From a virus (lineage: Duplodnaviria; Caudoviricetes), in the IMG/VR virus record IMGVR_UViG_3300004686_000013, positions 1-26,414 of that record: a stretch of 26,414 nucleotides of DNA. One strand, given 5' to 3'. The notes below the pieces were generated by a model. It saw nothing but the letters and a program-made list of their open reading frames with translations. It was not told where the DNA came from and did no database searches. The first letter of the stretch is position 1. The number at the start of each line of letters is the position of its first letter. Positions 2,007 to 18,155 of the stretch are shown here, piece after piece. The position numbers and the translations under genes are program-made.

Positions 2007-2729
2007 TTACCCCGGAAATTCTTGCAACAAAAACGATGTAGCATCTTCTAACATTAAAAACCCAGTATCGTTTTCCAATAGAATACCATCATTTTCTATT
2101 GGTCCGACTTGAGGCCCTGGCAACAATGACATAAAGACATTTTGCCCAAGATTATTAGACCAATTCACTGAATTATCAAGTAAATTGGTCCAATCTGCAT
2201 TTGTTAGACCTGTATCAATAGCCCCGGTTCTTGGAACTTCTGTATTGTCATATGGAAGACCAATTTCATTATCTCCAGGGACTTGAAAAGATTGTCCTGG
2301 CTGATGGTTCCATCCACCCGGTGGCTCACCAGTTTGTTGCGTAACACGTGTATTGTTATTTTCTGTAATACGTATTTGACCCGTTGGAACAGGCAATCCA
2401 GTCCAAAACCAAGCCGAATTTACAGTAGGAGAAACTGTGGGTTGCGGGGCAGATGTAACGCGAGTATTTTGTTCATATTCCTTATAACGCTCAGGTCGAG
2501 CATTCAAGATCGGCATAGGATCTGGCGGAAGAATACGTGGCTTTAATTGAGGCTGGGGGTCGTCAAAACACGTTTCACAAACTAAAATTCTCAAGTTTGC
2601 AAGGTTACGGCCTCTGTAGTCATACTGCCAGCGCAAATCTTTATGATTGTAAAGAAAACCACAACGATCACATATTGCAAATGCAGCGCTGTTATTTGGA
2701 TCAACTTTAGCTCTTCCGTGAGGATACAT
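2007..2729 (-). CDS. Conserved phage protein with N-terminal CxxC..CxxC (putative Zn-binding) domain
   Basis: CDRC...CETC...DPQPQL...DPMPILNARPE; acidic LLE-type repeats at the C-terminus; lies in the morphogenesis operon. Confidence 0.75.
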   Translation of the reverse strand: MYPHGRAKVDPNNSAAFAICDRCGFLYNHKDLRWQYDYRGRNLANLRILVCETCFDDPQPQLKPRILPPDPMPILNARPERYKEYEQNTRVTSAPQPTVSPTVNSAWFWTGLPVPTGQIRITENNNTRVTQQTGEPPGGWNHQPGQSFQVPGDNEIGLPYDNTEVPRTGAIDTGLTNADWTNLLDNSVNWSNNLGQNVFMSLLPGPQVGPIENDGILLENDTGFLMLEDATSFLLQEFPG

Positions 2730-3493
2730 TATTCCACATCCTCCACGTAAGAAAACTTAAACCCACCAACAGTTTTCCTGTTATTTTTCCCTAAACATAG
2801 TTCTATCACTGAACTTTTAGCTACATTATAAACTCTAGCCGCTTCACTCGCAGATGGGTATTGCCTTCCGTCATTTAAACAAACAACCTTTTTGGATAAT
2901 TTTATTGGTCCGTTTGCCCTTCTACCAGCTCCATCAATTCCATTAATTATTCCGATATGACTTTTATTAACGTCTACAATTTTACGGCGTTTTGCGCACT
3001 TAATTTCAATTTCTCTAATAAAAATATTTCTATCCTTTTCTTCAATTTCTTTATCGTAATAAATAAAGTGCAACCCATTCGCTGATCTGTATTTAAGATT
3101 GCAAACATCCGTTATTGAAACGGGTGATAATTTATTTTCAAAAGCCGCTTCTGTCGCACTATTATATATCCTACCTGTTTCCAGGCACATAACATTTTTT
3201 CTATTGTGAGGAATAATACCTACGGTTCCATCCCCACCATCTGTTAAATTAGCTATTTTATATCCACTATCTCTAAATGCCTTTATCCATGCTCTTTCCC
3301 AAAAACATGAAATTTCCCAGTTTGGTAATTCTGCAATCAAAGATATTTTAACACCGTGTTTTTTTACAATGTTTTTATGATATTGAGTTCTGCTGTGATG
3401 ATTTAACTTAAATGCACGATCTTTTTTTTGGCCTATCCCAACATAGAAAGGTTCATGCATATCTTCTTTAAAATGACAATATAAATATGGCAT
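2729..3493 (-). CDS. Free-standing GIY-YIG-like homing endonuclease with two NUMOD1-like DNA-binding repeats
   Basis: YLYCH...FYVGIG...R, conserved E, NLTDGGDG; two repeats VxCLxxGRxYxSAxEAA...SxxxxC; visibly AT-richer than neighbours. Confidence 0.85.
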   Translation of the reverse strand: MPYLYCHFKEDMHEPFYVGIGQKKDRAFKLNHHSRTQYHKNIVKKHGVKISLIAELPNWEISCFWERAWIKAFRDSGYKIANLTDGGDGTVGIIPHNRKNVMCLETGRIYNSATEAAFENKLSPVSITDVCNLKYRSANGLHFIYYDKEIEEKDRNIFIREIEIKCAKRRKIVDVNKSHIGIINGIDGAGRRANGPIKLSKKVVCLNDGRQYPSASEAARVYNVAKSSVIELCLGKNNRKTVGGFKFSYVEDVE

Positions 3494-5090: not shown

Positions 5091-5423
5091 TTAGTCAAGA
5101 CCGTGCTTGGACTGAATGTCCGCGCCTGGACGGGTAGAAGTTTTCTGAGCAGCTTCCCAATCTTGGCTGATTGAGGCACCACCTTCTGCACGACCACCAC
5201 GCTTACGGGGAGCGCGGTCGCAACGAGCCATTGATTTCTCGCCTTCGACTTTGCCGCCCTTTTTGCGCTTCTTGGCATCTTTCATAACATTGCTGTCTTT
5301 ACCTGCGTAAGCCATATCATGCTCACGATCGTCCGCAAATGAGCCCGTAGGATCATTGGGGACATTAGCGGTAGAAGCGCGACCGCCTTCTTTCCGCTCC
5401 ATATGATGTTTCTTGCCTCTCAT
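5091..5423 (-). CDS. Small charged low-complexity protein with four RxxGG motifs
   Basis: RKEGGRA, RKKGGKV, RKRGGRA, RAEGGAS. ATG 5423 preferred over TTG 5429 on RBS spacing. Confidence 0.75.
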   Translation of the reverse strand: MRGKKHHMERKEGGRASTANVPNDPTGSFADDREHDMAYAGKDSNVMKDAKKRKKGGKVEGEKSMARCDRAPRKRGGRAEGGASISQDWEAAQKTSTRPGADIQSKHGLD

Positions 5424-5436
5424 GGCCAATCATCCT

Positions 5437-5943: not shown

Positions 5944-6858
5944 TTACGATGTTGGGAACGATCCGTAGATTGAACGCCAGTTGTAGTATCCGAACGAATA
6001 GCGCTCGTAGCCCTTCACCAACAGGTTGTCTGTCGTGAAGTCTACCTGCATGTCCATTTCGTAAGGGACACGTTCCATATAAACGAGACCTTTAATGTTC
6101 GTCAGTAGGAACCACGCAAAGTTTGACGTCAGGTAATCGTTTACCATGTAGCCTTCTGGCAAGCCGCCGGCCGTGGAAATGATTGCGTTCACGTCGTTGT
6201 TTGCAGTGCCTGGGCGCAGTTCGGTCTTTGTAAGACGAATTGCAACAGGTTCAAGCGTCGGTGGGATGATCAACTTGCGACCACGAGCAAAGATCTTCAG
6301 ACCAGCGATATCGCGGAAGTTCTGACGAATTGCAATCATTGCATTCAACAGAGAAGCTTCGTTAAGATCAACGTCGGTCGTAGGACGGTTTGCAATCGTA
6401 TTGCCGTCAATCGGATGGTTTGTAGCGCAAAGTGATACGCCGTCGCCACCAACTGACGCATTATACGTCGTTGCCGTGTTGAGGATGTTTGCGCCATAGA
6501 TTTCTTTGGTCTGTGAGAAGCTCTCAATCAGACCAAGGTTCGTTGGCGTAAACTGTGTCTTATACAGGTTATCATCAATTGCCTTACGGGTAATGGCATA
6601 GCCAAGACCGATTTCGTAATGCTCTTGATTGTAGACGTAACGCTCGGAAGCGTTGTTGTCAAAGTTTACAGCGCCGCCTTCAGTCTTGATTGCTGCAAGA
6701 CCGAGGTAACGCATTTCTGCTGTGCGCTCAAGAGCAAGGTTAGATTTGCTCTTCTCGAACATTTTGTCCCACTGCGATGGGATCTGAGGGTATTTACCCT
6801 CAACGCCACGGAGACCTGGTAAGAGCAGGTCGCGGATGGCTGAAAGATTAACTGCCAT
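5944..6858 (-). CDS. Major capsid protein (HK97 fold, Mu gpT-like family)
   Basis: 304 aa; LLLPGL...EGGAV.FD...LGYAITRKAIDDNLY...GGDGVSL...HP...KLIIPP.L...ERYSFGYYNWRSIYGS; strong GGAG RBS; follows the scaffold and decoration genes. Confidence 0.92.
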   Translation of the reverse strand: MAVNLSAIRDLLLPGLRGVEGKYPQIPSQWDKMFEKSKSNLALERTAEMRYLGLAAIKTEGGAVNFDNNASERYVYNQEHYEIGLGYAITRKAIDDNLYKTQFTPTNLGLIESFSQTKEIYGANILNTATTYNASVGGDGVSLCATNHPIDGNTIANRPTTDVDLNEASLLNAMIAIRQNFRDIAGLKIFARGRKLIIPPTLEPVAIRLTKTELRPGTANNDVNAIISTAGGLPEGYMVNDYLTSNFAWFLLTNIKGLVYMERVPYEMDMQVDFTTDNLLVKGYERYSFGYYNWRSIYGSFPTS

Positions 6859-6871
6859 GTGAGCCTACTCC

Positions 6872-7492
6872 TTAGATGCCAGTTACCGCGCCGTTAGAAC
6901 GCAGCATCTCGTTGTTGAAGCCGACGATGACGTAGTTATAAACTGACGTCGCGTCTGTGCCGTTAGCACCCGGTGGGTCGATAACCATGTCGACGACTTG
7001 GAACGGATACGTTGCAGTCGTGCCAACAGTGTCAACATACATGCCGGAAATGCCAGTAGAGGTGTTACCTGTGCCAACATTAAGCTGGACAAGTTTACCG
7101 ACTGGAGAAGTGCCGAAGGCTGTGTTTGTGCCGCTGATCTGGAAGCTTGAGCCGCTTGTCTGAACGACAAAGCGAGCATTCGGATCATCAATCACGTATG
7201 CGATGACGTCGCCAGTAGCGTCAGAGCCTGGCCAATAGTTTGACCAAACAGTGCGCTTCTGAGATGTCGAAAGATACTGGCAACCCCAGAAGATACCAGC
7301 AAGCGCAACCGTGCTTGCAGTAGCTTGCTTGATGTAACCATTTGTGGACGGAGACGTTACAGGGACAACTGCGTCGCCCTTGTAAATCGCACCGGCCGTT
7401 GACGCAATACGGCGAACCGATACGCGCCAATTCATCGGACCATTGCTGGTCGACGTCGGAGAAAATCCGAACGGAGCAAAATTGTTAGACAT
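6872..7492 (-). CDS. Putative capsid decoration/cement protein
   Basis: MSNNFAPFGF.P...IYKGDAV...GIFWGCQY...YWP...AYVIDDP; directly upstream of the capsid gene. ATG 7492 chosen as start. Confidence 0.7.
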   Translation of the reverse strand: MSNNFAPFGFSPTSTSNGPMNWRVSVRRIASTAGAIYKGDAVVPVTSPSTNGYIKQATASTVALAGIFWGCQYLSTSQKRTVWSNYWPGSDATGDVIAYVIDDPNARFVVQTSGSSFQISGTNTAFGTSPVGKLVQLNVGTGNTSTGISGMYVDTVGTTATYPFQVVDMVIDPPGANGTDATSVYNYVIVGFNNEMLRSNGAVTGI

Positions 7493-7524
7493 GACCAATC
7501 CCTATGGGGCTTGGATCCTTACGC

Positions 7525-7641
7525 AACTCCGGCGCGGAGGAGTTTCAGAATGGGGGTGTGTGATGTTCCCGGCGCGGGTCCATCGAAAGCCGCAAGCCTT
7601 TTGGCGCGGCGGGGTTCAATCCACTTCTCCCGGCGCGGGAG
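7525..7641 (-). promoter_or_regulatory. Array of four GCGCC-loop hairpins in the 5' leader of the decoration/capsid genes
   Basis: Plus-strand GGCGC at 7531, 7571, 7603 and 7632, each within a stem (CTCC/GGAG, CCC/GGG plus GATG/CATC, GCC/GGC, CTCCC/GGGAG). Confidence 0.7.
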
Positions 7642-7715
7642 CAGGAAATACATAAGCAACCAATGGTCGCTAAAATCGTCAGTTTATATTTATCAGACGT
7701 TTTATTAGAAAGCAA

Positions 7716-9728: not shown

Positions 9729-10232
9729 CTAAAAACTTCTCTCAAATTGCCCATAGTTTTTTATTGCGGCCAATTGATATGCGATAGAGGCGGCAGCAGG
9801 ACAATCAAATAAACCAAGATGTTTACTTATTTTTCCTATTTTAGCTCGCCACATTCCTGATTGTTTATGCCAATAAACACCTTTAGGAGGCCATGCTCGC
9901 ATTGGACGTTTATTTTGATTTTGTTGAGATCTCGTCGCTAAACGCAAGTTTTCCCATCTATTGTCTAATGGATCACAATTTATGTGGTCTATTTCAGATT
10001 TAGGAAAACTTCCTGTCATATATAGCCATGCTATACGATGGGCCCGATAGGCTTTTCCTAAAATCCAAAGTTGACATCTTCCTTTTGCGTCTAATGTTCC
10101 GGCTTTTTTACCAGCCCACTTAGCATCCCATGCAGGTATTCCATGATTTTTATGGAAAAACCATCCAGTTAGTTGATCATAATATAATATTGATTTTAAA
10201 TATTTTTGCGTGATATTTGATAAATTAGCCAT
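9729..10232 (-). CDS. HNH homing endonuclease with C-terminal AP2-like domain
   Basis: YRAHRIAWLYMTG...IDHINCDPLDNRWENLRLATRSQQNQN; KGVYWHKQSGMWRAKI...LGLFD. Start ATG 10232 follows GGAGA. Confidence 0.92.
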   Translation of the reverse strand: MANLSNITQKYLKSILYYDQLTGWFFHKNHGIPAWDAKWAGKKAGTLDAKGRCQLWILGKAYRAHRIAWLYMTGSFPKSEIDHINCDPLDNRWENLRLATRSQQNQNKRPMRAWPPKGVYWHKQSGMWRAKIGKISKHLGLFDCPAAASIAYQLAAIKNYGQFERSF

Positions 10233-10260
10233 TTGCTTATCTCCAGAAAGCTTGTGGTTA

Positions 10261-10300
10261 AAGGGGTGGAGATGGTGACACATCTCTATCCCTTGTTTTT
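10261..10300 (+). terminator. 14-bp hairpin plus U-tract, antisense to the HNH leader
   Basis: AAGGGGTGGAGATG-GTGACA-CATCTCTATCCCTT-GTTTTT; two G-U pairs form only on the plus strand. Confidence 0.55.
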
Positions 10301-10508
10301 AGCGCCTTTTATCTTCTATTCCCAGGACCTTTTTCTGGGCTTCTTGTGCGGCATTCAGAGCATCTGATATGCCCTTCAAGCGACCTACCCTGTGTCGATA
10401 GTCGTCGAAGCTTTGGGCCTTGCCGTTTGCCAACTCTAGCGTGAGTTGTTCATACAAATCGGCAAGGATTTTCACTAGCTCATCATAGAGCATCAAATCT
10501 AAGTTCAT
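10299..10508 (-). CDS. Small conserved hypothetical protein (69 aa)
   Basis: Helical; 'NGKAQSFDDYRHRVGRLKGI' motif; abuts the upstream stop codon (TAA ATG). Confidence 0.75.
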   Translation of the reverse strand: MNLDLMLYDELVKILADLYEQLTLELANGKAQSFDDYRHRVGRLKGISDALNAAQEAQKKVLGIEDKRR

Positions 10509-11774
10509 TTACCCGCCAGTTTTGCTATTAGGCGTCGGATTTTGTCCTTGCAGATAATTGAGGAGCGCTTGGTTCCCAAATTGGTTCTGCAATGCACTCA
10601 TTCCAGCATTATAAGAAGCAACATAAGGGTCTACTGATCCGCCAACGTCGGGCGTTACTGCTTGGGATTGCATGAATGCGTCACCGGCAGGGCTATTCAT
10701 AATAGCGTTTTCTACGTCTTGGCGTGTGGCCAAACCTTTATTTAACTGATCAGTCCAATATTGCGCCTCTTGTTGGCTTGGATTTCTTCCCACATCAGAT
10801 TGGAATACTTGGTTGATAAAGTTTCCGCTCTGATTGGCGTAGTCTGCCAAAGAAGCTTCGATTTGTCCTTGTGTTGTTGTCCCGGACGTAAGTGCGTCAG
10901 TCCAATATTTTAATCCCTCAGGATCTGGGTCTCTTCCCATATATTGCTGATAGGCAGCATTTAGGAATTGATCCGTCGGCAAATTCTGCGACGAAACACT
11001 TGCGTCGTAGTTTTGGTAATGCCCGGGTAAGTTTTGCGCTGTGCTTGTGTATTTTAATGCCGGAGAAGTAGAGGCCGGCATTTTTGCTAATACGTCTGGC
11101 GGCAGTGTGGACAACGAAGAAGCCGGAACTGTCAAACCGGCAGGCGGTCCAGATGTAGGACCTCCTTGAGCCGTTTGTCCTGCCGGTGGGGCAGGTTGAT
11201 TAGCAGCTTGCTGCGCTTGCATTGCAGCCTGAACTTGCGGTGGAAGAAGATTAGGGTCCATCTGGCCAAATCTGGCTAGTGTATCTCCCGTCATCATCAT
11301 CGAATTTGGCTGATTATACATTGAGCCAAATGCCGCTAGTGGAGCCTGCGCAAATCCTTGAGCCGGGCCTGGAGCGTTAAATGCCGCAAGACCTGCCGCC
11401 TGTTGCTGCTGAGGTGTCCCACCAGATGGGGCAGACGTAGCAGGATTGCTACCGGCTAATATACCACCATCAGCTCTTCTTGCCCTTCCGCCATATCGAC
11501 GGCCTTGCTGAGAAGATCCAGCCCACGACGGAGTTATCCCCGCAGTTGCAGGCTGGTTTTGTGGCTGAGGCGGCTGAGCAACCGGAGCGGGCTGGGAGCT
11601 AACATCCATGCCGTTATCATACATGGCTGATCGCGTCCCAAACCCATCATGGGTCGGAGATTGCTCAAGTGACTTACCCAGGGTTTGATTACCTGCATTC
11701 TGAACCTGATTAGGGTCAGCTGCTTGCGGAGAAGCGGCAAAGCTGTCCTGGGTATTCTGATACTGAGAACCCAT
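10509..11774 (-). CDS. Gln/Pro/Ala-rich virion-associated protein with two DUF4214-like repeats; may be expressed as a -1 frameshift fusion with 11807..12955
   Basis: FLNAAYQQYMGRDPDPEGLKYWTDAL and FINQVFQSDVGRNPSQQEAQYWTDQL; ends KTGG-stop; no clear SD before ATG 11774. Confidence 0.8.
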   Translation of the reverse strand: MGSQYQNTQDSFAASPQAADPNQVQNAGNQTLGKSLEQSPTHDGFGTRSAMYDNGMDVSSQPAPVAQPPQPQNQPATAGITPSWAGSSQQGRRYGGRARRADGGILAGSNPATSAPSGGTPQQQQAAGLAAFNAPGPAQGFAQAPLAAFGSMYNQPNSMMMTGDTLARFGQMDPNLLPPQVQAAMQAQQAANQPAPPAGQTAQGGPTSGPPAGLTVPASSLSTLPPDVLAKMPASTSPALKYTSTAQNLPGHYQNYDASVSSQNLPTDQFLNAAYQQYMGRDPDPEGLKYWTDALTSGTTTQGQIEASLADYANQSGNFINQVFQSDVGRNPSQQEAQYWTDQLNKGLATRQDVENAIMNSPAGDAFMQSQAVTPDVGGSVDPYVASYNAGMSALQNQFGNQALLNYLQGQNPTPNSKTGG

Positions 11775-11806: not shown

Positions 11807-12955
11807 CTAGATAAAACCCTTCCGGCCAGCTTTATATGCCGCAAGTTCTTCTTTCTGGAGGCGGCCTTCGCCTGAACCAGCGCCGGCCGTGAGGTCCTGT
11901 GTAGAGCGAACTTTACCACCTCGTTTAAATGGACGGGGTGGCATACCGCCTGGCGCACCCATACCCGGAGCGCCCCCTAATCCCTGTGGCATACCGCCCA
12001 TTGGAGGTGCCGGCGGCATTGCTCCGCCCATTGGTGGGGCTGGTGGCATTCCGCCCATAGGAGGTGCCATAGGGGCGCCACCTGGAGGCATTGGAGGCAT
12101 GCCGCCCGGAGCGCCGCCCACTGGAGGCATGGGGGGGCGTGGCATCCCTCCAGCTGGCATAGGAGGTAAGCCCCCCATTGGATTTGTCTGACCACGGCTA
12201 TCATTGAAATTAATTGTCACGCCACCTTTGGTAGCAGACTTGCCGCCACCTAAAGATGTGCCGCCGCTAAGAGATCCGCCATCAGCGCGCTTTGCACGAC
12301 CACCTTTACGGAGACCTTCCATGCTCTGCTGCTCGTCATGCTTTTTATCAAGAGCGGATTTCTCCCACTTCTCCATCGACATGCCGTGCTTTTTAGCAAG
12401 CTTCTTATCTTCGCGTAGGTCTTCCTTGGAATGTTCCCACTCCATGTGTCCGACCTTGCCACCCTTTTTCATGGCGTATTGGCCTTTGCCAAGATTGCCT
12501 TTGCGATAATCTTCGGGGGAAATCTTATTAGCTTCTCTCTCCGCGTAATTTCGCATAGCCTGCTTATCAGCCTCGGAAGGGCCAGATTGAGATTTCTCGG
12601 ATTTCAAGCCTTTCAAACGCTCCTCAGAACGCATGGCTTCCTCTGGGCTAGGCAACATACCGCCGTCATCACGCTTTTTACGGGAAGCTTTGTCCAAGCG
12701 CTTTAAAGACATGGCGCCCTTAACAGAGCCACCAGCCTTGCGCATGATACGTGGATTGACTTCTTGTGAAAGCTTCGGCTCAGCGAAGATAACGCCAAGG
12801 CCAGCCTGTTCATTGGTGTTCAGGCCCTTCTCGCCATCCCAGCCGTCTTCAGTTTTTTTCTTAGCTGATTTGGCTGCCTTTGAGCCTTTTCCAGCATAAG
12901 TATCAATCTTTTTATCATGGCCTGCTTTGGCCTCTTTAGCATATGGATGTGCCAT
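11807..12955 (-). CDS. Lys-rich / Gly-Met-Pro-rich low-complexity protein with six xxxGG motifs (putative internal virion protein)
   Basis: RKAGGSV, RDDGGML, MKKGGKV, LRKGGRA, RADGGSL, FKRGGKV; GGMPP repeats; C-terminal GAGSGEGRLQK. Confidence 0.8.
   Translation of the reverse strand: MAHPYAKEAKAGHDKKIDTYAGKGSKAAKSAKKKTEDGWDGEKGLNTNEQAGLGVIFAEPKLSQEVNPRIMRKAGGSVKGAMSLKRLDKASRKKRDDGGMLPSPEEAMRSEERLKGLKSEKSQSGPSEADKQAMRNYAEREANKISPEDYRKGNLGKGQYAMKKGGKVGHMEWEHSKEDLREDKKLAKKHGMSMEKWEKSALDKKHDEQQSMEGLRKGGRAKRADGGSLSGGTSLGGGKSATKGGVTINFNDSRGQTNPMGGLPPMPAGGMPRPPMPPVGGAPGGMPPMPPGGAPMAPPMGGMPPAPPMGGAMPPAPPMGGMPQGLGGAPGMGAPGGMPPRPFKRGGKVRSTQDLTAGAGSGEGRLQKEELAAYKAGRKGFI
11813..11819 (-). other. Candidate -1 programmed ribosomal frameshift site G GGU UUU
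   Basis: X XXY YYZ heptamer in the correct phase two codons before the TAG of 11807..12955. The -1 frame is open into 10509..11774. Confidence 0.6.
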
Positions 12956-12982: not shown

Positions 12983-13051
12983 AGGCTCAGACGGCGCGTC
13001 CGATTAGCCTATAAGATTGTAAAATATCGGCACTACGGCGCGTAGGTCGAT
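12983..13051 (-). promoter_or_regulatory. Two GCGCC-loop hairpins in the 5' leader of 11807..12955
   Basis: Minus strand ATCG..CTAC-GCGCC-GTAG..CGAT and AGGCT..GAC-GCGCC-GTC..AGCCT. Confidence 0.7.
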
Positions 13052-13090: not shown

Positions 13091-15868
13091 TCAATGTTTT
13101 TTAGCAGCCCTCATATTATCCACGAGATTTGGATAAGGGCGCCCGGCAGCCTTAGCCGCAGCTTTAGCAGATGACTTTTGCTCGCTTGTTAGTGGATCTG
13201 GCTTACCAAGTGACTTAGGACGAGGTTTATCCCACACTGGTCCGCCAGTTTTATATTTCCTAGCCACCGAAAGGGCGTCACTAACAGCCCCGCCTTTATT
13301 CATTTGTCCTGGTGCTAATCCTTGACCGCCAGTTCCAGGGACAGCAGATCCGTCAACAACCATAGGTGATAAATATAAAGACCCAGGATCGGGCGTTCCT
13401 GTGGAAGTTCCTAATGTTCCGGCAGTTCCACTACCAGAAGGCAATCCTGTGTAACCAAGTTGATAATAATCAATTGGAGTGGTTGCTGTTGGACCAGGAA
13501 TATTCGCCGTAGCAAGCGTTGATCCAGCTCCAGAAGATGGAGCAACGCCTGTTCCAATGCCAGATCCCACTCCAACAGGAACGCCTATTGAAGCCCCAGC
13601 GCCAGAATTAACACCAACATTACCGCCGGCACCTGTGCCTGCTAATTGTTGACCTAAATTAGTTCCTGGCTGTGTGCCGCCGGTAATAGTTCCGCTACCA
13701 ACTGAAGTGCCAGTTCCCGTAGTAGGAAGTGTCCCAGCATATGGGACATATTGTCCTTGAGCATTTTTTGTAAATTGATAATTTGCTAACTGGCTTCTTG
13801 AAATGATTGTTGACGGATCCTGATAAAATGGACCGGGGGTAGCATTATCAGCCAAAACATTTTGATAACTAGCGTCGTCCAAAACTTTTACAGGTTTACC
13901 ATTAATCATTACAGTCGACATATACGGAATAGTATTTCCTTGAACAGTATTGGATGGAATAGTTTGCGTCTGCGGTGGAGGAGTTATTTGGTAAGGTTGA
14001 TAACTGCTTCCCTGAGACGTTGCATACTGTTTACCTTCATCAGATTGGGGCAAATATTTAGCCAATACATCTTGTGTTACTTGCCCTGTTCCTAATTGGC
14101 CAGTCCAATATTGCTGTTCTGCTGAAGTTGGGGCGCGACCAAAATCCTGTTGATACGCATCATTTAAAAAAGAAGAGTTTTTAAAATATTGTTGTGCAGG
14201 GTCGCTTCCTGCAAATGCAACCTCCACTGATTGAGGCGTTGCTGTTCCTGCACGTAATTGATCTGTCCAATATTTAACACCATTTGGATCAGGAGGTGTG
14301 CCAAGATCGTTTTTATATAGTTTATTAATAAAATCAGTGTAATCAGATGGAATTAATTTAGCTGGATCGGCCGCTACCGCCTTTAGGTTGTCAGGAATAT
14401 TATAATCAACAAAAGATTTACCATAATCACCTTTCGAGGCATTTGGTGCTATTTGTTGAAGCTGTTGTTGTATTCCTTCAGCATATCCCAATCTTTTTTG
14501 GAATGTGCTTTTCGCGTCTTGCGCCGCTGAACTATTAGAGGAAATATTCCCTCGGCTATTTATAAACGCCCCAGGGCTTTCTACTGCCAATGCTCCGGCC
14601 ACAGCAGATTGGAGATCTGGAGCATAGTTCATATAATCATTAACAGATGAAGGATTAGCGAGATCGTATGATGATCCTAAATTTCCTGTAGTATAATTTA
14701 CCCAAAACGATGTTTGAGCTGCTGGATCGGATGGACTTAAATTATTAGCTTTTGCATATTTTTGAAAGGCAGTATTCATTGGGCCAGTAAATTGAAACGC
14801 ACCATAACCACCGCCACCACCAGTTTGCGGCTGATTAAAGTTTAAATAATAGTTTCCATCAGAATTGGCCTTGGATGATTGTCCTTCAGTAGCAGCATTT
14901 GCAGCATAAGCAATGGCCGCATTGTAGGACATCCCTTGGTTCATCAAGTTTAAGGCCAAATTAGTGGCATTTGTCCAATCATATTTTTTAGGAATGTCTG
15001 CCGTCGATGATTGAATATTTTTAGGATCAGACAACCATTGGACTGAATTTTGAGCGCCTGAAGATAAATTTGTCCACCCTAAATTATAGCCCGTCCTAGA
15101 TGTGTCACCAACATATTGACTAGGATCTGTTGTCCCGCCCGATAACCCAGATGTGCTTTGTCCACCGGTAGCACGATATTTTCGGGCTACTTCCAAAGCC
15201 CCACCATCAGAACACTTCCACTTTCTCAAAGATTTATTAATCCGGCTATCTGGATCATTGGCTGTCTCAGAGCTGGTAAGCTTAGCTTTCATGCCTTTCA
15301 TACGAGCGCAGAAACTATCTTTACGGGATCCGCCTTCCGGCTGAGGACGCTTAATGTCATGACCCTCGGAACGGAGAGAAGCTCGACCCTTTTCGTTCAA
15401 CCCGCCCTCTGGGTTTTTGCCCTCAGACCTTTGCCAAGCCGGTGTCTTAGCCATCTTATTATTCCCTCGTGCCGATCCGCCAGTAGCCATTCCGGCAGGC
15501 TTAGGCCAATCTTGCTCTGGCGACCATGCAGGATATTTGTCTTTACCAAGTTCAAAGAAGGGAGACTTTCCTTCTGCTTCACGGCGTTTTGCAGCTTCAT
15601 AAGCCCTATTATCAGTATCTTGTGGTGGGCTTCTATGAAGTCTTTCCGCCATTAATACAGCTGCCTTGTCGGCATCGCTTATATTTTCATAAATAGACGG
15701 ATATTGGATTTCTCTATCTGAAGAATATTCAGAAACTATTCCAGAGTTGTCTAAATTTTTAATTGGACCGAGAAAACCAATATCTTTTGATTTAAGCGCA
15801 TCTAATTTATCTGTTTCTGGGTTGTATCTTTGCCCCCATGGATGTCGAAGAGGAAGTGTCTTAGCCAT
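13091..15868 (-). CDS. Multi-module virion protein: N-terminal module, DUF6321-like basic module, phage tail lysozyme-like domain, two DUF4214-like repeats, Gly/Thr linker, basic C-terminal module
   Basis: KTPAWQRSEGKNPEGGLN...SFCARM...SLRKWKC; GMSYNAAIAYAANAATE...GYGAFQFTG...AQTSF...RLGYA; modules separated by xxxGG motifs. Start ATG 15868 follows GGAGAG. Confidence 0.8.
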   Translation of the reverse strand: MAKTLPLRHPWGQRYNPETDKLDALKSKDIGFLGPIKNLDNSGIVSEYSSDREIQYPSIYENISDADKAAVLMAERLHRSPPQDTDNRAYEAAKRREAEGKSPFFELGKDKYPAWSPEQDWPKPAGMATGGSARGNNKMAKTPAWQRSEGKNPEGGLNEKGRASLRSEGHDIKRPQPEGGSRKDSFCARMKGMKAKLTSSETANDPDSRINKSLRKWKCSDGGALEVARKYRATGGQSTSGLSGGTTDPSQYVGDTSRTGYNLGWTNLSSGAQNSVQWLSDPKNIQSSTADIPKKYDWTNATNLALNLMNQGMSYNAAIAYAANAATEGQSSKANSDGNYYLNFNQPQTGGGGGYGAFQFTGPMNTAFQKYAKANNLSPSDPAAQTSFWVNYTTGNLGSSYDLANPSSVNDYMNYAPDLQSAVAGALAVESPGAFINSRGNISSNSSAAQDAKSTFQKRLGYAEGIQQQLQQIAPNASKGDYGKSFVDYNIPDNLKAVAADPAKLIPSDYTDFINKLYKNDLGTPPDPNGVKYWTDQLRAGTATPQSVEVAFAGSDPAQQYFKNSSFLNDAYQQDFGRAPTSAEQQYWTGQLGTGQVTQDVLAKYLPQSDEGKQYATSQGSSYQPYQITPPPQTQTIPSNTVQGNTIPYMSTVMINGKPVKVLDDASYQNVLADNATPGPFYQDPSTIISRSQLANYQFTKNAQGQYVPYAGTLPTTGTGTSVGSGTITGGTQPGTNLGQQLAGTGAGGNVGVNSGAGASIGVPVGVGSGIGTGVAPSSGAGSTLATANIPGPTATTPIDYYQLGYTGLPSGSGTAGTLGTSTGTPDPGSLYLSPMVVDGSAVPGTGGQGLAPGQMNKGGAVSDALSVARKYKTGGPVWDKPRPKSLGKPDPLTSEQKSSAKAAAKAAGRPYPNLVDNMRAAKKH

Positions 15869-15869
15869 C

Positions 15870-18155
15870 CTACTCTCCATCTTCCGCAGTTGGCATTCCC
15901 ATCGGCTGCGACATCAAATTAAATATACGATCCTTATGCTTCTCATTGGCGTCATGACGATGTTGTTCCGTCATCTGGCCATGTTGAGCAAGAAGATCCT
16001 TATCCTTGTTTTTCTCGTCTTGGCGGAGCTTGTCAGCATGGACCATTGCAGTTTGCTGAAGCTTCATCGCTTCTAATTGCAATTTACCTTTGCGGTCCTC
16101 AGCATGGTTCTGGGCATCCGTAAACGCCTTCATCTGATCAGTCTTGATCTTCTGAACATTTGCCTCAGTAACCATCGCCTTCGTCTGATTGTCGACCTGA
16201 TTAGACTGGGCCTTTATTTGAACCTCGGCCTGTTTTGCCTGAGCCGTTATCATCTTGGCCTGGGCTTCCATCATCAGTGCAGGATCTTGTTGCGGGCCTT
16301 GTGGTGGTTGTTTACTCCACAGGCTGTCAATATCCTCAATATCTGTCATCTCAAGAATACGACGATCGACTTCCTGCATGTCGTAAAGTTGTGGGTTCTG
16401 AGCGGCAAGTTGTTTGAGTGCAATCGCCTTCTGGATCCTTAATGTCTGAGAAGAACAATTTGGATCAGCCTTCGGGACAATATCGTAATTGTCTAAGGCT
16501 TGCTGGAGTAACTCAGCATCTTTCTGGAACCCTGGATTTCTATTAGATCTCCAAAGGCTCTCCGGATCTCTACGGAACAATTCCTTGAGTAATGAGAATT
16601 CCTTGCCCTGTGCCTGATGCATTCTCTTATGAACGGCATTCAGGACTTTTGTGGCCTGCTCAATCATCGCAATGGTAGATCCTACGGGAATATCCTGCCT
16701 TCCCTCTCCTACGGCCATTTCTGCCGTGCCACCAACACGCTGGGCAGTCTGTTCCACATTCTGGATCATTTGCATAAAGCCGCTGGATATATCCCGATAT
16801 GGAAGCGGGAGAAACGCCTCCTTTAAAGGAACGCCATCGACGTCTAATGGCGCCACTTGTCCTGGCCCAACCCGGATCGTGGTCGTTTGCTGGCGGCCGG
16901 ATGATCGAGCCATAACGCCACCCGGAAAATTAGCCAGCATGCCATTGTCAAGAGCAATTCGCCAAGCCGCTGTAAGAGCGCGATTAGCATTACCAAGAAT
17001 ATGCAAAAGACCGAGGTTAAGACCGGGGAACGACGGAACAAATACATACTCAACGAAGACTTCTTTTCGTGTATAATTTTCATCGCCCTCTTCCCACCAA
17101 CGGCGGATTTCGAGGACTTGCCTGCTGTCCTTGTCTAACGTCACACGATAAGGAAGGGGCAACCCGGTGGCTTCGCCATCTTCTTTATGCTCAAAACCAC
17201 GCAGATCTAACTCACAATAACACTCGTAAATTTCTCTATCGACCTCTCGGTGTTCCATCAAGCTCTTCGGCTCAACACCTGAGATGTTTGCCAGTTCAAT
17301 GTCAACAACATTGCCTAGCGCAAAATTTGTGGAAGTAAGTGCGACGTCTCTCCAAATGCCGGCAAGCTGCATTCTTCTTACGTCTGAAGGCTTCATCTTA
17401 CTACGATGAGTAACCCTGGCGGCCGCTTCAATAGCTACGGCACCTTCGGAAAGGATCAAATCCTTACGGTCAATTGTCTCTGATACAGGACGACGCTTCA
17501 AAGGATGATAATAAACCTTCTTGTATGCCTCTCCACCCAATCCAAGCGAAAAGAACATACGATCAGTATCGGGATAATATTCAGGAGCCCCAGACGTCAG
17601 ATAATGGTTCATGTCTGTCTCAAGGGCGTTTGCCGCTTGATCGAGCTGCTTTATCTGATCACCTTCATTCGAGACCTTCACCGGTCCATCAGCCGGCAAC
17701 AATTCGCCGCGGGCATTTGCCTGGAACCTTAGGACAGCTTCCAATAACAACGGATGCTTAACGACCGAGATGCCCTCGTCATTTGGTTCTGATCTTGGCT
17801 CTTCGAGCTTAATGCCTAGGAGTTCAATTCCCTTGGCGACGTCTTCTAATCTCTGATCCTGACGCGTGCGATCGTCATTGATCAATCTCAAAAGCTCATC
17901 GGCAACGCCAGTGAGAACACCTATCTCGACATGCATCGCCAAATTGGCATCATGATCCTTGCTATCTTCGCTGGGCGCCTGTGGCAATCCGCCAAAGTTA
18001 ATCTGCACCCCGCCATCGGTAAGATCAATTTGAATGACTTGATCGCCCGGCTTTGCCTTTTGCTCAGGTGGCGTGAGGTCTACCTGCTCAGGCTTTTCCT
18101 GCGGCATTCCAGGAGTAGGAACCTGCCGTAAGTTCATCGGGGCTACATTGGCCAT
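15870..18155 (-). CDS. Portal protein
   Basis: 761 aa downstream of TerL; HPLLLEAVLRFQANARGELLPADGPVK, YKKVYY, LPYRVT, GLLHILG, AVHKRMH; coiled-coil C-terminus as in P22-like portals. Confidence 0.9.
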   Translation of the reverse strand: MANVAPMNLRQVPTPGMPQEKPEQVDLTPPEQKAKPGDQVIQIDLTDGGVQINFGGLPQAPSEDSKDHDANLAMHVEIGVLTGVADELLRLINDDRTRQDQRLEDVAKGIELLGIKLEEPRSEPNDEGISVVKHPLLLEAVLRFQANARGELLPADGPVKVSNEGDQIKQLDQAANALETDMNHYLTSGAPEYYPDTDRMFFSLGLGGEAYKKVYYHPLKRRPVSETIDRKDLILSEGAVAIEAAARVTHRSKMKPSDVRRMQLAGIWRDVALTSTNFALGNVVDIELANISGVEPKSLMEHREVDREIYECYCELDLRGFEHKEDGEATGLPLPYRVTLDKDSRQVLEIRRWWEEGDENYTRKEVFVEYVFVPSFPGLNLGLLHILGNANRALTAAWRIALDNGMLANFPGGVMARSSGRQQTTTIRVGPGQVAPLDVDGVPLKEAFLPLPYRDISSGFMQMIQNVEQTAQRVGGTAEMAVGEGRQDIPVGSTIAMIEQATKVLNAVHKRMHQAQGKEFSLLKELFRRDPESLWRSNRNPGFQKDAELLQQALDNYDIVPKADPNCSSQTLRIQKAIALKQLAAQNPQLYDMQEVDRRILEMTDIEDIDSLWSKQPPQGPQQDPALMMEAQAKMITAQAKQAEVQIKAQSNQVDNQTKAMVTEANVQKIKTDQMKAFTDAQNHAEDRKGKLQLEAMKLQQTAMVHADKLRQDEKNKDKDLLAQHGQMTEQHRHDANEKHKDRIFNLMSQPMGMPTAEDGE

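Follow-up and report, generated by a model that had tools for sequence, protein, structure and literature searches.

Published accounts describe three systems in which short RNA loops are read by proteins, and it is with these that we compare the locus described here. In the late mom mRNA of phage Mu the start site is buried in a stem, and Com binds an upstream hairpin-loop motif, reading CC(N)2-3GAG, and exposes that site (PMC6483171). ANTAR targets are made of two small hairpins with conserved terminal loops, are read by a dimeric protein, are repeated as a regulon and act by antitermination (PMC3369931, PMC4347634). The CNGG(N) pentaloop is the recognition element of Smaug/Vts1, and its readers are eukaryotic SAM-domain proteins (PMC2275152, PMC4253089). 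A fourth RNA of interest, Mu-gpT-DE (RF03012), is a structured element that ends at a start codon; it belongs to the same wider group of phages and neighbours a capsid gene of the Mu gpT-like kind.

The locus lies on a 26,414-nt stretch of viral DNA (hereafter the window), in which a 226-nt gap ahead of the capsid operon holds an array of hairpins with five-base loops. As in mom, the start site of this capsid leader is buried in a local stem, by folding prediction in 186 of 197 cases, but the leader has two or three sites at a 40-nt spacing and precedes capsid genes, its loops read NCGNY and not CC(N)2-3GAG, and the proteins scanned hold no match to the Com family. It shares with ANTAR targets the two tandem hairpins with conserved terminal loops, whereas no terminator-like site lies over or after its hairpins A and B and the pentaloops are about 40 nt apart. 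The leader is a member of neither class. In one clade of relatives (clade B) the CCGGY loop is literally CNGGN, with positions 1 and 4 pairable and G3 nearly invariant, and a CNGG(N)-like loop shape may be present; this is a resemblance of shape and not membership, and differences include the ACGCT, ACGAT and CCGTT variants, which break the 1-4 pair, and the absence of a SAM domain from the phage proteins scanned. Mu-gpT-DE differs in that it consists of one 53-nt stem, carries another loop and lies downstream of the major capsid protein gene (MCP), whereas the element of the window lies upstream; its model scores 72 bits after the capsid gene in CRP-902 and finds no match in the window, in four relatives' loci or in the capsid leaders scanned.

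The sequence-only reading had recognised no named motif in the array, and an Rfam covariance-model search bears this out, having returned no relevant match: at the gathering threshold of Rfam 15 there were none in the window, a looser threshold gave only an opposite-strand chance match to SAM-SAH near the gap (17.7 bits), and one clade-B leader gave only a 19-bit chance match to a snoRNA. We found no description of this hairpin motif in the literature searched and no match in four tables of a catalogue of viral candidate RNAs (PMC10690425), which may nevertheless hold a prior computational listing of it.

The virion genes of the window run along the - strand in the order terminase, portal, GroES-like, putative scaffold, a 187-aa gene, the 226-nt gap, a 206-aa gene and MCP. 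The 206-aa gene (6872..7492, - strand, ATG at 7492) opens the capsid operon; its product belongs to PHROG 37556, of unknown function, found no match in a PDB sequence search, and is a putative decoration protein, a name that, like 'scaffold', comes from gene position only. MCP follows after 13 nt (5944..6858, - strand) and is Mu gpT-like (phrog_371), with 41% identity to its counterpart in Pelagibacter phage HTVC023P and 80% to that of an uncultured spring phage. In the decoration/major capsid operon of the sequence-only reading, the word 'decoration' is thus positional. The 187-aa protein has no match in Pfam, PDB or the named Atlas entries (its model has a mean pLDDT of 75 and a pTM of 0.49), and the Atlas matches of a 69-aa protein are unnamed clusters only. 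Structural-module genes are the only ones common to nearly all of 11 compared genomes.

Elsewhere in the window, K/R-x-G-G motifs are repeated in basic or low-complexity proteins (11807-12955, 5091-5429, 13091-15880 and 10509-11774, all on the - strand), and a conserved protein with two CxxC motifs (2007-2729, - strand), putatively zinc-binding and possibly RNA-binding, is encoded next after the head-tail adaptor in 9/11 genomes. Two homing-endonuclease genes lie within the virion module (2729-3493 and 9729-10283, - strand), the latter an HNH gene that splits a hairpin in the 69-aa gene from the GroES-like gene. As to the hosts, a Pfam scan of 149 small proteins from four related genomes found homologues of GcrA and GapR, and because relatives carry these, alphaproteobacterial hosts are suggested. 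Five MAG contigs with the capsid gene come from mixed taxa and are possibly mis-binned, and we therefore do not assign a host from them; in 151 genomes of one class, the sole match to covariance model R1 was a phage-like contig in one genome.

The leader can be followed along the - strand from its 5' side. A predicted sigma70-type promoter, TTGCTT-N17-TAAATA (7687..7715), placed by position, adjoins the stop codon of the 187-aa gene; relatives have TTGACA-N17-TAAAAT or similar in the same place, just past the upstream stop. A consensus promoter scan gave 0 sites at the predicted promoter of the window, whose -10 box is without the last T, and such -10 boxes are common in alphaproteobacteria. 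Because the position of the promoter is shared with relatives, the array likely lies within a 5' leader, with a transcript start predicted from position near 7680. A search for expression listed no RNA data set with the sequence, and three runs that were compared consisted of relatives' contigs, two of them probably DNA. An inverted repeat (7672..7703, arms 7703-7696 and 7680-7672) holds the -10 box in its loop and likely serves to end the transcript arriving from upstream, as a terminator built on the same bases as the promoter. By eye, comparable repeats of other sequence enclose the -10 box in many relatives of the window's own clade (clade A), and clade-A loci with a separate upstream terminator seem to be without them. 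The next element is a 5'-proximal hairpin, AGCGACC-ATT-GGTTGCT (7655..7671), terminator-like by scan; its T-rich tail is by eye not obviously conserved in relatives.

The array itself begins with an optional upstream C-GCGCC-G hairpin (7627..7641), 144 nt before the start codon, followed by a spacer hairpin with a variable loop (7589..7610). Hairpin A (7562..7584) carries the C-GCGCC-G cap with its loop 83 nt before the ATG, and hairpin B (7515..7551) carries the same cap, its loop 43 nt before the ATG, on a long imperfect stem with an internal loop. Last comes a hairpin (7495..7514) predicted to pair the Shine-Dalgarno AGGGA (7503-7499), for which folding gives an unpaired probability of 0.25 in the window.

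The array had first been noticed as four copies of CGCGCC on the coding strand, and all four are present (- strand, 7632-7637, 7603-7608, 7571-7576 and 7531-7536). Their spacings of 40, 32 and 29 nt are correct as values but had been listed 3' to 5'; in transcript order they are 29, 32 and 40 nt. Three copies cap a stem, as had been said of every copy (CTCCC/GGGAG, 5 bp; CCC/GGG, 3 bp plus GATG/CATC; CTCC/GGAG, 4 bp at the top of a longer stem), but at 7603-7608 the copy lacks any flanking pair: it forms the 5' arm of the spacer hairpin, a separate structure with an AAAA loop and not a capped copy, and the matching segment of L001, the closest relative, is without CGCGCC. Similarly, the view of a constant GCGCC loop on variable stems was right about constant loops and covarying stems, but the cap conserved across clades is C-NCGNY-G.

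CGCGCC is not enriched across the window (10 seen, 8.8 expected), and in 2000 dinucleotide shuffles of the 226-nt gap neither four copies nor three identical capped hairpins were ever reached (0/2000 for each). Only five GCGCC loops with at least three Watson-Crick pairs occur in the window, all on the - strand and in two gaps; two of them (13041 and 12997), overlooked by the sequence-only reading, precede a 382-aa gene. When the gap is folded without constraint, its minimum-free-energy structure pairs copy 1 with copy 4; the local hairpins are backed by a span-limited fold and by covariation.

How widely is the array conserved? Five viral scans and one genome scan yielded 398 loci including the window, of which 386 have the 5' end of the 206-aa gene, giving 380 leaders, 218 of them distinct; we estimate the family at about 800-1000 IMG/VR stretches. 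Hairpins A and B were both called in 190 of the 218 distinct leaders, one in 27 and none in 1, by a caller that demanded 3 of 4 core bases, which makes loop base counts partly circular; four mis-called rows were removed before loop pairing and loop switches were counted. The array forms a 5' leader that is conserved among distant relatives of HTVC023P. Clade A, whose MCPs are at least 86% identical, has RCGCY loops (GCGCY in the window's type), and part of it has a third copy at -140 to -180, three copies being common there; clade B has the cap C-YCGGY-G (CCGGY type), with a bulged base on the 3' side of the stem. Within its own clade, neither covariance model gives more than one strong match per record, and three divergent members are matched only weakly (E 0.07-0.5); the window escapes the clade-B model just as clade B escapes that of clade A. 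Because the models do not find the opposite clade, the putative homology of the two kinds of leader rests on position, architecture and the presence of ACGCT-loop intermediates on the clade-B scaffold. HTVC023P, CRP-902, DSL-LC04 and a Caulobacter phage have no such leader, with gaps of 17-53 nt in its place, and these four cultured relatives make capsids without it.

The stems covary in relatives, the opposite of the outcome (no conservation or covariation there) that would have told against the sequence-only reading. An alignment of 26 clade-A leaders (A1) has double-sided changes in 19 of 21 pairs, a count matched by 0 of 500 shuffles, which ignore relatedness, and 89% of its cells are paired against 35-52% in slid controls, likewise far below. 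Such changes fall in 7/8 pairs of hairpin A and in 6/6 pairs of the upper and 3/3 of the lower helix of hairpin B (26 sequences). Among 55 clade-B leaders chosen for diversity (A4), double-sided cells number 115 against 41 in shuffles (0/500); the number of pairs with double-sided changes, 15/21, does not exceed that in shuffles (101/500), and the lower and anti-Shine-Dalgarno helices are paired in just 76% and 72% of their cells. With stems anchored on the loop, G-U exceeds A-C on the coding strand by 60 to 22 in clade A (stem positions 2-7, 85 hairpins) and by 28 to 10 in clade B (positions 2-5, 83 hairpins), and because G-U outnumbers A-C on the mRNA strand an RNA element is favoured. Across 598 kb, clade-B loop hairpins occur 74 times in leaders, 0 times elsewhere on the coding strand and twice on the opposite strand. 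The original proposal of a cis-regulatory RNA on the transcribed strand gains support from these covarying stems, which lie downstream of the predicted promoter.

The hairpins keep a fixed relation to the gene that they precede. In 187 leaders the loops lie about 83 and 43 nt from the start codon (standard deviations 3.5 and 2.7 nt), and the gap from the upstream stop spans 95-1615 nt, being widened in some loci by genes or tRNAs that have been inserted; A and B are 37-42 nt apart in 172/190 leaders. The hairpins are anchored to the start codon and not to the promoter or the 5' end. The stem that follows hairpin B is predicted to pair the Shine-Dalgarno, which ties the element to translation initiation: the mean unpaired probability of the Shine-Dalgarno is 0.14 in the capsid leader (n=192) against 0.39 at MCP (n=184) and 0.51 at GroES (n=21), and in the leaders it is 0.15 against 0.51 when the bases 5' of it are shuffled, being lower in 186/197. 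The ribosome-binding site is thus predicted to be occluded. The anti-Shine-Dalgarno helix does not overlap hairpin B, which argues against a simple RNA switch, and the nearest loop lies about 30 nt upstream of the Shine-Dalgarno. The earlier choice between a translational operator, an antitermination site and a stability element can be narrowed, because hairpins fixed to the start codon and a Shine-Dalgarno predicted to be paired favour translational control over antitermination or 5' stability.

The region between the 187-aa gene and the leader is an insertion hotspot, often with tRNAs or inserted reading frames, some of them homing-endonuclease-like (L133, L138, L154, L118, L119, L125 and others). 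Nine leaders (L022, L023, L055, L079, L210, L237, L250, L252 and L355) have a very short gap, no obvious promoter and the divergent loops CTRTGGGA and TWGGC, and are possibly a read-through version of the leader.

The two loops of a leader also change together. The same minority base occupies position 4 of both loops in 7 of 114 rows, which are not independent, against 0.26 when permuted, and clade B contains at least eight separate concerted switches: four to RCGAY (L054; L027/L205; L314; L412/L418), two to ACGCT (L224/L440; L344) and two to CMGTT (L129/L130; L432). Every switched lineage is nested among CCGG relatives in a tree of the 206-aa protein (FastTree; some supports are 0.7-0.8, and recombination is possible). 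Copying of one loop onto the other is unlikely, because the two stems of one genome differ from each other; a shared, co-evolving reader that selects both loops would be the simpler inference. Loop positions 1 and 4 are pairable in 341 of 372 loops (CG 240, GC 54, UG 44, UA 2, GU 1) and broken in 31, and G3, a base that the caller favoured, is nearly invariant.

Several other readings of the loops were set aside. An R-Y closing pair that would make a triloop is unsupported, ACGCC being about as frequent as expected; K-turn and inverted-element readings were dropped on the alignments; and a CsrA/Rsm target does not fit loops in which GGA is barely present (1 CCGGA among 190 called pairs). The hallmark of a T-box is a conserved UGGN bulge for the tRNA 3' end, and a T-box-like tRNA sensor was rejected on the alignments, in which the lower-stem UGG is not conserved, even though loop positions 3-5 resemble a GNY codon.

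Related hairpins stand before other genes of the head module. In the window, a second leader, that of the basic 382-aa gene (11807-12955), carries two C-GCGCC-G hairpins (13026..13051 and 12983..13010, - strand) at 86 and 42 nt ahead of the gene start, nearly the same distances as in the capsid leader (83 and 43 nt). In clade A, R-H-G-C-Y hairpins, which have a background of 2.6% per 21-nt slot, are found at -36 to -50 before the 382-aa gene in 11/16 leaders and before GroES, inside the 69-aa gene, in 17/25 loci. The copy in the 69-aa gene is G-ATGCT-C in the window (10351..10372, - strand) and lies about 55-68 nt before the GroES-like start in relatives; 55 of its 57 stem cells are paired against 36.8 when permuted (19 sequences), its stems covary via synonymous codon positions, and the final three bases of its loop double as an alanine codon. 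No R-H-G-C-Y hairpin precedes MCP (0/33) or a 151-aa gene (0/18), and matches before the scaffold (10/28) and 187-aa genes (4/31) are scattered, against a 12.5% background. Loop hairpins precede GroES in 0 of 51 clade-B loci, and since clade-B genes other than the capsid leader lack the loop, the shared head-gene regulon is limited to clade A. Occlusion at the 382-aa gene is weak (0.42 against 0.51 shuffled, 11/15), and the window's own 382-aa Shine-Dalgarno is not occluded (0.51 against 0.44 shuffled).

Other structures were seen in the same places. By eye, a CCGG-GACG-CCGG-type hairpin (GG-GACG-CC) precedes the 382-aa counterpart in clade B (L039, L048, L065, L068 and L154), taking the place of the clade-A loop. 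In the leader of the 382-aa counterpart, eight loci (L002, L011, L097, L104, L110, L111, L126 and L127) have a further hairpin between the two RHGCY ones, with a constant loop that contains TTGGCC. A conserved leader of the form GACYG...GCAGAC/GCGGAC...GCACAGAC lies after MCP and before the 151-aa gene in L002, L031, L041, L054, L075, L097, L110 and L129; it recalls Mu-gpT-DE, with L097 and L154 below the threshold of that model, and the 51-nt gap after MCP in the window is without it.

What might read the loops of the capsid leader? We give about an even chance to the reading that they bind one protein that activates translation from the occluded start. The matching five-base loops of the two or three hairpins, set at fixed distances before a Shine-Dalgarno that is predicted to be paired, would dock one RNA-binding molecule, presumably a protein and probably a dimer. 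Once bound, it would open or bypass the occluded ribosome-binding site, so that its effect would presumably be activation and not repression of translation, and the output of capsid protein would then follow through translational coupling across the 13-nt gap. No CsrA, SAM, Com or S1 family was found among the 149 small proteins, which were taken from four of the six genomes that gave a list of 386, and no ANTAR domain among these 149 relatives' proteins or 32 proteins of the window. By eye, no head-module protein tracks loop type among the matches listed, which are noisy with spurious ORFs, and carriers of type-C loops do not group in the tree of the 187-aa protein. Because the scanned phage proteins include no known RNA-binding family and the same few loops recur in unrelated lineages, a host factor that varies between host taxa is about as likely a reader as an unannotated, exchangeable phage protein.

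The reader could act in the opposite sense, as in the autoregulation by the P22 scaffold. We think it unlikely, though well worth weighing, that the leader is a translational operator at which a phage head protein (the scaffold, the 187-aa protein, the decoration protein or a basic internal protein) represses translation or locks the anti-Shine-Dalgarno hairpin, balancing head stoichiometry. Such an operator would suit a loop type that stands before three head-module genes in clade A, and a gene set in which the structural module alone is common to nearly all 11 genomes. However, the 30 nt or so between the nearest loop and the Shine-Dalgarno, and a site predicted to be closed without protein, fit it poorly, the loop switches are not mirrored in the flanking proteins' trees, and the cultured relatives retain these proteins without the leader.

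A fold without any protein is less probable again: here the loops would kiss through a self-complementary core (GCGC, CCGG or only CG), and the resulting compact tertiary structure would aid ribosome loading or block nucleases. Retroviral GACG loops kiss through CG only, and both the fixed spacing of A and B and the pairable positions 1 and 4 are consistent with contact between loops, but an intra-loop fold of the CNGG(N) type explains the 1-4 pairing equally well. The switched genomes oppose a 4-bp kiss, because their two loops are identical and not complementary (ACGCT/ACGCT, ACGAT/ACGAT and CCGTT/CCGTT). Nor does kissing sit well with the three copies common in clade A, with the single hairpin before GroES, or with AAGCT and ATGCT loops, which have no CG.

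We see only a slim chance that the hairpins form a nut-, put- or ANTAR-like antitermination site, at which the polymerase would gain read-through of late-operon terminators. The anchoring to the start codon and not to the promoter, kept across insertions of up to 1.5 kb, speaks against this, as does a scan that found no terminator over or after hairpin B, even though paired hairpins with conserved loops do come soon after the promoter and there are a terminator-like hairpin at 7671-7655 and a GC hairpin with a T run after MCP. A marginally slimmer chance goes to an mRNA stabiliser or processing signal, with stems that block 5' decay or loops that guide a host nuclease or protector: by eye, hairpin A comes a few bases after a TTGACA/TATAAT-like promoter in many clade-B leaders, but a plain barrier requires neither a conserved loop nor concerted switches, and a long distance separates the hairpins from the predicted 5' end in clade A and wherever a leader carries an insertion. 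That the element is a DNA hairpin or cruciform signal, or that its loops pair with a phage antisense RNA, is very improbable. In its favour, the loops of clades A and B come close to being reverse complements of each other, and the variable positions are mostly C/U, the pattern expected of wobble pairing to an unchanging partner. Against it, G-U outnumbers A-C on the coding strand of either clade, the clade-B scaffold with ACGCT loops shows one register and one orientation for both types, and no complement of the loops was found syntenically in 12 loci or in the non-coding parts of six clade-B/C genomes, a search for which the clade-A pattern is too short.

Activation by a loop-binding protein, then, remains the reading that we prefer, and it allows a bolder version, offered tentatively and with clearly less confidence: the loops could be a switchable address code, in which an undescribed activator reads C-NCGNY-G hairpins to license head-gene translation and the copies are re-tuned together when the specificity of the reader changes, by host switch or gene exchange. 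If this were true, loop type would report host range, or a translation-level arms race, in a large uncultured aquatic family of phages. Activation of the kind proposed would, if true, show that a large group of phages controls the synthesis of its capsids post-transcriptionally. The leader is a compact, well-aligned RNA bait for a new RNA-binding protein, and its natural loop variants, switched in pairs at least eight times, already supply a set of specificity mutants; should the reader be a host protein, these variants could help to assign hosts.
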